From Escherichia coli (GTDB lineage: Bacteria; Pseudomonadota; Gammaproteobacteria; Enterobacterales; Enterobacteriaceae), in assembly GCF_048403405.1 (NCBI RefSeq), contig NZ_CP183129.1: a stretch of 64,000 bases of DNA; one strand, 5' to 3'. The position numbers are program-made. This document shows positions 1 to 3,000 of the stretch, piece by piece; within the stretch, counting starts at the first letter, position 1; every line of letters starts with the position of its first letter.

Positions 1-3000
1 GCAAAGGGTGCCAGGCACGGCTGCACATTAATGCCGACGGAACGCAGGCGACATTTATTGATGATGCTGGGGAGCAAAAATGGGCGGTGGATTCCATTGC
101 CGACTGCGCGCGTCGTTTTATGGCGCATCCTCAGGTGAAAGGACGTCGGGTATATGGACAGGTTGGGTTCAACTTTGCGGCGCATGCGCGGGGGATTGCC
201 TTTAACGCCGGGGAGTGGCCGCTGCTGACGTTAACCGTTCCCCGTGAAGAACTTATTTTTGAAAAGGGAAATGTCACCGTTTATGCGGACTCCGCCGACG
301 GGTGCCGACGTTTGTGCGAGTGGGTAAAAGAGGCCGGTACAACGACGCAGAACGCACCACTGGCGGTGGATACCGCCCTCAATGGTGAGGCATATAAACA
401 ACAGGTTGCGCGCGCCGTTGCGGAGATCCGCCGTGGCGAGTATGTCAAAGTGATTGTCTCGCGCGCCATTCCCCTGCCATCGCGGATTGATATGCCCGCC
501 ACGCTGTTATACGGGCGGCAGGCAAACACGCCTGTGCGCTCGTTTATGTTCCGTCAGGAAGGACGCGAAGCGCTGGGCTTTAGCCCGGAACTGGTGATGT
601 CAGTGACGGGCAATAAAGTGGTCACTGAACCGCTTGCGGGCACCCGAGATCGCATGGGAAACCCGGAGCATAATAAGGCGAAAGAGGCAGAACTGCTGCA
701 CGACAGTAAAGAGGTGCTTGAGCATATCCTTTCTGTCAAAGAAGCTATTGCTGAACTGGAGGCTGTTTGCCAGCCGGGCAGCGTGGTGGTTGAAGATTTA
801 ATGTCGGTTCGCCAGCGCGGCAGCGTTCAGCATCTGGGGTCTGGCGTGAGCGGTCAGCTTGCGGAAAACAAGGATGCCTGGGATGCGTTTACCGTGCTGT
901 TTCCGTCGATTACCGCCTCAGGTATCCCTAAAAATGCTGCTCTGAACGCGATTATGCAAATTGAGAAGACGCCGCGAGAGCTTTATTCCGGCGCAATCCT
1001 GCTGCTGGACGATACGCGCTTTGATGCGGCGCTAGTTCTGCGTTCCGTATTTCAGGATAGCCAGCGCTGCTGGATACAGGCGGGGGCGGGAATCATCGCG
1101 CAATCTACGCCGGAACGCGAACTGACAGAAACCCGGGAGAAATTAGCGAGCATTGCGCCCTATTTAATGGTGTAGGAGTAACTGTTTTCTAACCTCACAA
1201 CCAGACTGTCCAAAGACAATTGAGTCGCTCTTTGATTCCTCTGTGACTCTATTGTCTTCTTTTGGGATAAAATAGGTGTTTTTCGTCATGAAGTTGATAA
1301 AAGTCTATATAGAACCACCTCCTGTGGAGGTGGTGGTAATTTGCCAGAGTGTGGGATTCGTTAGTATACTATGGGATAAACTTATTTTTACCAATTGTAT
1401 AAGGCGGTGCATAAGATTCTCGGCATGCTTCCAGATAATCCGACCACCACTGCATCATCGCTTTGCGGGCTTCCAGGTGCTCTGCCTTATGAATATAAGC
1501 CATGCGCACGGTATTGCGCTCCTGATGACTCATCTGGCGTTCTACTGCGTCCTTTGCCCATAAACCCGATTCCATCAGCGCACTGCATGCCATTGCCCGG
1601 AAGCCGTGACCGCAGATATCCTTTTTCGTGTCGTAACCCATCACCCGCAGTGCCTTATTGACCGTGTTTTCACACATTGGCTTATACGGGTTATGGTCGC
1701 CGGGGAAGATCAGTTCATTATTACCGGTGATATCCTTAATCTGTTTCAGAATGGCGATGGACTGTTCTGAGAGGGGGACGATATGCGGCATTCGCATTTT
1801 TGCCCCGCGGCCGGAATAATGCACGCCAATAATGGGTTCTCGCGTCGCGGGTATCGTCCAGACTCGGTTTGTGAAATCAATCTCTGACCAGCGGGCGAAA
1901 CGCAGTTCACTGGAGCGAATGAACACATGCAGCATCAGCAGAACGGCATGCCGGGTCAGTTCACGGCCCTGATGATATGCCCCAATACGTTCAAGCAGTT
2001 CAGGCAGCCGCTCCAGCGGCAGGGCAGGATAGTGCCGTCTGACAGGAGGTGTGGTCACGCCGCCAAGGTTTGCTGCAGGGTTCGTATCGATTAACTCCTG
2101 ATGGACCGCATGGCGTATTATGTTACTCAGGTGCTGCCGTGTGCGGGACGCAACCTCCAGCAGACCTTTTTCCTCGATCCCTTTCTGCAGGTCAATGAAA
2201 TGACGGGGTTTAAGTTCTGATACAGGTAGGTTCCCGATGACCGGAAAGATGTGATTGTTCAGGCTGGCAAGCAGACGGTCGGCGGTGTTCTGCGACCATT
2301 TCCTGTTACTTTTATGCCACGCCAGCGCCACGTTTTTAAAAACTTTCTCCGGTGTTCGTGAGCCACGTACAGCAGCCCGCTGCTGTACCGGGTTGATATT
2401 CAGCGCCAGCATTTTACGGATACCTTCACGTTGCTGTCGCGCATCAGACAGGGAGATGGCTGGATAGGCACCCAGCGCAATGCGGGATTCTTTACCGCTA
2501 ATACGGTATTTGAGATACCAGTGGCGGGAGCCACCCGGCTTGACCCGCAGATACAGACCGTGAGAATCGGAGACTTTAAAGGGTTTATCAGAAGGCTTGA
2601 GGGTGCGGATTTTTGCGTCGGTAAGGGATATATGGGGGTCACTCCATTATCGAACTAACCTGACCCCAGATTTGACCACCAATTTTTCCCGATGCGTAGG
2701 GTAAAATCAAAATGCACCGAGAAGAGTTTTCACACTAACCTGTTGAATCAACATCAGATAAAGATTCGCAAGGATGCAAGAAAACAGAAAATTGGCTCCT
2801 CTGACTGGACTCGAACCAGTGACATACGGATTAACAGTCCGCCGTTCTACCGACTGAACTACAGAGGAATCGTGAGAACGGGGCGCATATTACTTAGCGG
2901 TACCTTGTCTGTCAACACTAAATTTCATAAGCCATTTCAATTGGTTAATTAATCTGCAAAGTTGTTAATTAATGAACATTCGTCGCCGAAAACGAGTCTG

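Follow-up and report, generated by a model that had tools for sequence, protein, structure and literature searches.

The junction between the yersiniabactin island and asnT is a textbook case, known and thoroughly described already. In the common Escherichia coli type of the Yersinia high-pathogenicity island (HPI), a unique deletion at the fyuA border has removed the direct repeat together with part of the adjacent chromosome and has left the island fixed, and the fixed HPI spreads by homologous recombination of its flanking DNA (Schubert et al. 2009, PMC2606025). The 17-bp attO sequence at which the island is joined to the chromosome has been published in Table 1 of Paauw et al. 2010 (PMC2801613).

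Here we analyzed a window of 64,000 nucleotides from an E. coli chromosome (contig NZ_CP183129.1), the start of which we regard, with a probability of about 96%, as the int-proximal (attL) junction of the common E. coli type HPI at asnT. The sequence-only reading had recognized such an int-proximal end from a ybtS gene, a minus-strand P4-type integrase gene, a tRNA-Asn gene, and a 17-mer. Each of these parts was recovered where it had been placed (Table 1), and the proposal as a whole was borne out by the identities of the parts, the break in homology to K-12, and the neighboring mtfA and serU genes. About 40% of complete E. coli genomes (2251/5426) share this junction. Accessory DNA meets core chromosome here, and it is almost certain that the strain has the yersiniabactin island, a virulence and fitness island; the finding is of little weight beyond annotation. 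Two minor features, an ATA start allele of int and an apparent linkage of a yodB-less flank to the island, are possibly absent from the literature.

Table 1. Features of the island junction and its surroundings. Positions refer to the window unless a proxy locus is named.
Feature	Position	Strand	Evidence
ybtS (irp9), salicylate synthase, last gene of the ybtPQXS operon	1-1175	+	TIGR03494; Irp9 structure; PGAP on identical DNA
ybtS/int spacer between convergent genes, island DNA	1176-1368 (193 bp)		2/193 positions differ from ICE-type island
HPI integrase intB, P4-type tyrosine recombinase, 420 codons	1369-2631	-	Pfam domains; P4 Int similarity; PGAP, same coordinates
attL island-side arm, core to int	2632-2791 (160 bp)	-	Alignment of 8 loci
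17-bp core attachment sequence (attO) CCAGTCAGAGGAGCCAA, tRNA-Asn 3' end plus one base	2792-2808	-	Exact match
asnT, tRNA-Asn (GTT), intact	2793-2868	-	ARAGORN; Rfam RF00005, 72.6 bits
Promoter-like site upstream of asnT, TTGACA-17-TAATAT	2887-2915	-	Consensus match only
mtfA, first core gene past the junction	2969-3766	-	NF011939, 541 bits; K-12 collinear, 98.2%
serU, tRNA-Ser (CGA), second island/prophage integration site, unoccupied here	3860-3949	+	ARAGORN
Chimeric ORF, 249 codons, left of the window in proxy genome MS 69-1	L004 10852-11601		In-frame island/yeeJ fusion

The position of the boundary follows from comparison with an HPI-negative strain, as the sequence-only reading had suggested. 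K-12 is collinear with the window through mtfA and asnT at 98 to 99% identity, and the alignment stops precisely with the final base of the 17-mer, the two sequences diverging at the very next base. In an even sample of 60 genomes, all of the island-free ones begin to match at window positions 2789 to 2792. The DNA left of asnT is island DNA with no counterpart in K-12, and the tRNA gene is identified as asnT by its neighbors on the other side, mtfA and serU, which are arranged as in K-12.

The 17-bp core claimed for the tRNA 3' end proved to be exact, with the sequence as published (PMC2801613). All but one of its 17 bases belong to the tRNA 3' end, and CCAGTCAGAGGAGCCAA has its sole copy in the window here when up to two mismatches are allowed, with 0 expected by chance. 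However, the same 17-mer lies at all four asn tRNA genes, including the asnT gene of island-free K-12. Because every asn tRNA gene ends in this 17-mer, its presence alone is not diagnostic of integration, and the evidence for integration is instead the break in K-12 collinearity where the 17-mer ends.

All of the HPI and pks-type elements examined share a conserved attL arm, and its core-adjacent sequence in the window differs at two bases from attO flank no. 2 in Table 1 of PMC2801613. On the int-sense strand, CAGGTTAGT occurs twice in the arm (2647-2662 and 2727-2742), with the copies 80 bp apart, and these repeats are possible candidates for arm-type Int binding sites. Scans of the intergenic regions yielded no other terminator or promoter signals above background, the promoter-like site upstream of asnT apart, and the terminator scan of the spacer between ybtS and int returned no strong terminator.

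On the island side, the window opens within ybtS. Genomes with identical DNA have a 1305-nt ybtS, and the window begins at nt 131 of the gene, so that the first 130 nt are missing; the frame is open from base 3 and ends at a stop codon at 1173-1175. YbtS scores 637 bits against the TIGR03494 salicylate synthase model (cut-off, 325) and 863 bits against the Irp9 structures PDB 2FN0 and 5JY9, the 2FN0 match covering residues 45-434, and the PGAP annotation of the identical sequence reads "salicylate synthase Irp9/YbtS." The earlier identification of ybtS thus stands, since the sequence passes the cut-off of an equivalog model and is near-identical to the solved Irp9. As island cargo, YbtS turns chorismate into salicylate, the starter unit of yersiniabactin synthesis.

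What lies further to the left was read in proxy genomes. Window positions 1-25000 have a 100% match in several complete genomes; one of these, MS 69-1, shows only four differences in a further 50 kb. In MS 69-1 and strain 144, the DNA left of ybtS carries ybtX-ybtQ-ybtP-ybtA-irp2-irp1-ybtU-ybtT-ybtE-fyuA, the canonical order. The remaining yersiniabactin genes expected leftward are therefore almost certainly present, as judged from proxy genomes identical over 25-54 kb and not from this assembly. In the MS 69-1 locus (L004), the island-specific DNA amounts to 31,449 bp (31.4 kb) and contains int and the ybt genes only; its G+C content is 57.7%, versus 44% in the adjacent flank of the window (2869-12000).

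These observations also bear on the reading in which the integrase and tRNA genes come from another island at an asn tRNA gene, the colibactin pks island for example, and ybtS is a stray fragment. The pks integrase region at asnW does resemble the window in the attL arm and the 5' end of int (~93% identity), but ybtS and int are 193 bp apart, as they are in each HPI annotated here, the flanking gene is mtfA (asnT) and not yeeO (asnW), and window positions 1-2868 match many HPI-positive genomes at 100%. We consider a pks origin hardly credible and retain the HPI assignment.

By its domains and full-length similarity, the integrase is classified as a P4-type tyrosine integrase. Pfam recognizes Arm-DNA-bind_3 (PF13356), Phage_int_M (PF22022), and Phage_integrase (PF00589), identity to phage P4 Int (NC_001609) is 48.2% over 99% of the length, and 414 of 420 residues are identical to Int of the ICE-type HPI. 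Its score against NCBIfam PRK09692 is 230, under the cut-off of 434, so it is not of that subfamily. The ORF is otherwise intact, with the catalytic motifs RxxEL, HGFR, and AY (R..HxxR..Y) visible. Relative to the ICE-type allele, int carries six nonsynonymous and two synonymous differences, versus 8 and 25 in ybtS, which suggests relaxed constraint on int, although 6:2 counts are too small to establish it. Further, int is frameshifted in some sampled genomes.

The start codon of int is ATA (2631-2629, minus strand; PGAP CDS start). Read upstream, the frame meets its first stop codon, TAA, at 2647-2649, and no ATG, GTG, or TTG occurs before codon 74. Because the start is ATA, ORF calling restricted to ATG, GTG, and TTG shortens int to 347 aa from an internal ATG, as is also the case in GenBank record ON470583.1; PGAP annotates the ATA-start gene as intact. 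When the start regions of eight loci were aligned, ATA was confined to the window, and ATG was present in the seven others, namely, those of ST131, O104:H4, strain 222, the pks-island integrase (asnW), W21, an ICE-type island (asnV), and Raoultella planticola. An exact 71-mer containing ATA was found in 800 of 2210 E. coli genomes, and the same 71-mer with ATG was found in 76, a count that leaves out further ATG alleles differing at bases nearby. None of the ST131, O104:H4, ICE-type, pks-island, and Raoultella alleles has the ATA 71-mer. A full-text literature search returned nothing specific on an ATA start of the HPI int gene.

ATA is an allowed but weak initiator, with ~1% or less of the efficiency of ATG in E. 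coli. We tentatively suggest, as a possibility, that fixed islands with the change from ATG to ATA may form a large sublineage with silenced or strongly throttled Int translation. If true, ATA would be a second immobilizing lesion, independent of the attR/hef deletion, and it could bear on cross-talk with other asn-tRNA islands of the same core, e.g., pks. Alternatively, the integrase might still be made by low-level initiation at ATA and keep a role, for instance, in trans on asn-tRNA islands that have both repeats. The otherwise intact ORF with its catalytic motifs, a GGAG ~10 nt upstream of ATA, the commonness of the allele (800 genomes), and the 17-mer and related arm shared by the pks island are all compatible with residual synthesis. 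The low efficiency of ATA initiation, the excess of amino acid over silent changes in int, and the frameshifts, which fit a dispensable gene, argue against it, and we regard a retained role as unlikely. Given the lost repeat, the lost excision factor, the ATA start, and the predominance of amino acid changes in int, the integrase looks like a decaying relic.

The sequence-only reading had further proposed a search for a second copy of the 17-bp repeat, and here its expectation failed. Over 34 kb leftward in a proxy genome, no second 17-mer was found near fyuA within three mismatches, and only the three other asn tRNA genes matched; the distal repeat is absent in the proxy genomes, having been lost by deletion. 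Such a check would wrongly seem to refute the HPI, because the island is of the fixed, truncated E. coli type: the missing distal repeat excludes mobile HPI forms, not the HPI itself.

No homology to K-12 exists in the 1 kb past fyuA, and the distal boundary was mapped by adding an ICE-type island to the comparison. In MS 69-1, the junction is resolved to one base, at L004 11248, where ICE-type homology running from fyuA ends and K-12 yeeJ begins at its nt 219. The chimeric ORF that spans this point consists of ~117 codons of an island hypothetical gene followed, in frame, by yeeJ from codon 73 onward, and its PGAP product name is "inverse autotransporter beta domain-containing protein"; the remaining yeeJ in MS 69-1 is a frameshifted fragment. 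The fyuA-yeeJ fusion segment occurs in 2226-2268 genomes, only island-positive ones among them. Separately, a ~208-bp segment 3' of fyuA (L012 5586-5793, strain DA33133) is in the ICE-type island and missing from the common type, as an indel.

The distal end also decides how much weight to give to a complete, mobile ICE-type island (ICEEc1/ECOR31 or ICEKp-like), with a conjugation module and a second repeat left of the window. The distal end does lie outside the window, and int, ybtS, and the attL arm match their ICE-type counterparts at 98-99% identity. However, the ICE-type example lies at asnV beside nac and has ATG, whereas the island in the window lies at asnT beside mtfA; MS 69-1 and strain 144, the genomes with the exact junction whose left flanks were inspected, both carry the truncated fyuA-yeeJ fusion; and genomes with the fusion are about as many as those with the junction (2251). 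A mobile ICE-type island is thus highly improbable here, and the fixed E. coli type remains our reading.

In accordance with the integrase family, we propose that an ancestral integrative ybt element recombined by means of its P4-type integrase, pairing its 17-bp core with the identical 3' end of asnT, and that integration would have rebuilt an intact tRNA gene and put int beside asnT. To judge from the proxy genomes and published work, one deletion of ~35 kb on the fyuA side would have removed the AlpA/Hef excision-factor gene, the T4SS and mobilization module, the second repeat, and 588 bp of chromosome, and the same ~35-kb deletion would have joined the island ORF in frame to yeeJ nt 219. 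Because it would have one att site only and no excision factor, such an island could not excise. From genomes identical over 25-54 kb, we infer the distal deletion and hence that the island is probably a fixed, non-excisable remnant. As published, the island now spreads passively between E. coli lineages, large pieces of chromosome being transferred and then recombined through homology in the flanks.

Right of the tRNA, the window is collinear with K-12 at ~98% identity, this collinearity runs on past serU, and the annotation of a near-identical genome gives K-12 gene order through the fli region to pgsA. The statement that everything right of the tRNA gene is core chromosome holds for these K-12 core genes, which stand in order, but not for the yodB segment. 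There, 222 bp at 4397-4618 take the place of a 995-bp K-12 segment, and yodB (cytochrome b561) is missing. The yodB-less arrangement was found in 2304 of 5418 genomes. In a 60-row sample, the ratio of yodB-less to yodB-positive genomes was 14:4 among island-positive and 3:20 among island-negative genomes (Fisher's exact p = 7e-5, uncorrected for phylogeny). The association could stem from transfer together with the island, or phylogroup structure alone could account for it; an apparently island-linked, yodB-less flank fits the published spread by homologous recombination.

Several other observations concern this flank. About 17 of 59 sampled genomes lose homology at the serU 3' end (3949-3966) through islands or prophages there, an example of serU occupancy being the lambdoid prophage of ON470583.1. 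The sRNA genes RseX and DsrA lie at 12829-12918 and 21254-21340 (Rfam). After fliE, at ~33893-35331, the annotation of a near-identical genome shows two pseudogenes, one an incomplete integrase fragment and the other a frameshifted DUF5503 gene. What remains of the window is unremarkable K-12-like core that extends from the fli operons to pgsA.

ON470583.1 is a "phage" record with a 99.8% identical integrase; it was rejected as a phage copy of int, the record being a serU prophage over-extended across mtfA-asnT into the island. Beyond E. coli, a contig search with the int 5' end found Raoultella planticola only. Strain ATCC 33531 (L005 2769-2990) has an HPI-type int with the same attL arm and the 17-mer before it, and no tRNA gene was found by this int within the 5,967-bp locus, which suggests tandem asn-tRNA islands, as described for Enterobacter hormaechei.

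Compared with the described systems, the locus is closest to the common E. coli HPI at asnT (PAI IV of strain 536 and the HPI of CFT073 and Nissle, among others), with which it shares the site, the core, and the int-ybtS layout (PMC2606025; PMC7545054). The same fyuA-border deletion is present in genomes identical to the window, and no structural difference was found; the window allele has ATA at the int start, where the ST131 and O104:H4 alleles have ATG. The ICE-type HPI (ICEEc1 of ECOR31, ICEKp1, and HPI-ICEEh1) shares the attL arm, the core, the ybt core cluster, and most of Int. Its example in DA33133 at asnV (L012) keeps an AlpA-family (Hef-type) gene, a VirB T4SS, and mobC, whereas no T4SS, relaxase or mobilization genes, or excision factor were found in the MS 69-1 island; it also keeps the second 17-mer, just before ldtA, which has been lost in the lineage of the window. 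The Yersinia HPI keeps both repeats and hef and can excise. In Y. pestis and Y. pseudotuberculosis, the island likewise has an asn tRNA target, a 17-bp repeat, a P4-like int beside the tRNA gene, and the same ybt order (PMC7545054, PMC2801613). Satellite phage P4 has the same integrase architecture, at 48% identity, and likewise integrates at a tRNA 3' end and regenerates the tRNA gene. Its tRNA target is leuX, unlike that of the HPI, and its cargo is a phage genome, whereas the cargo of the HPI is a siderophore cluster.
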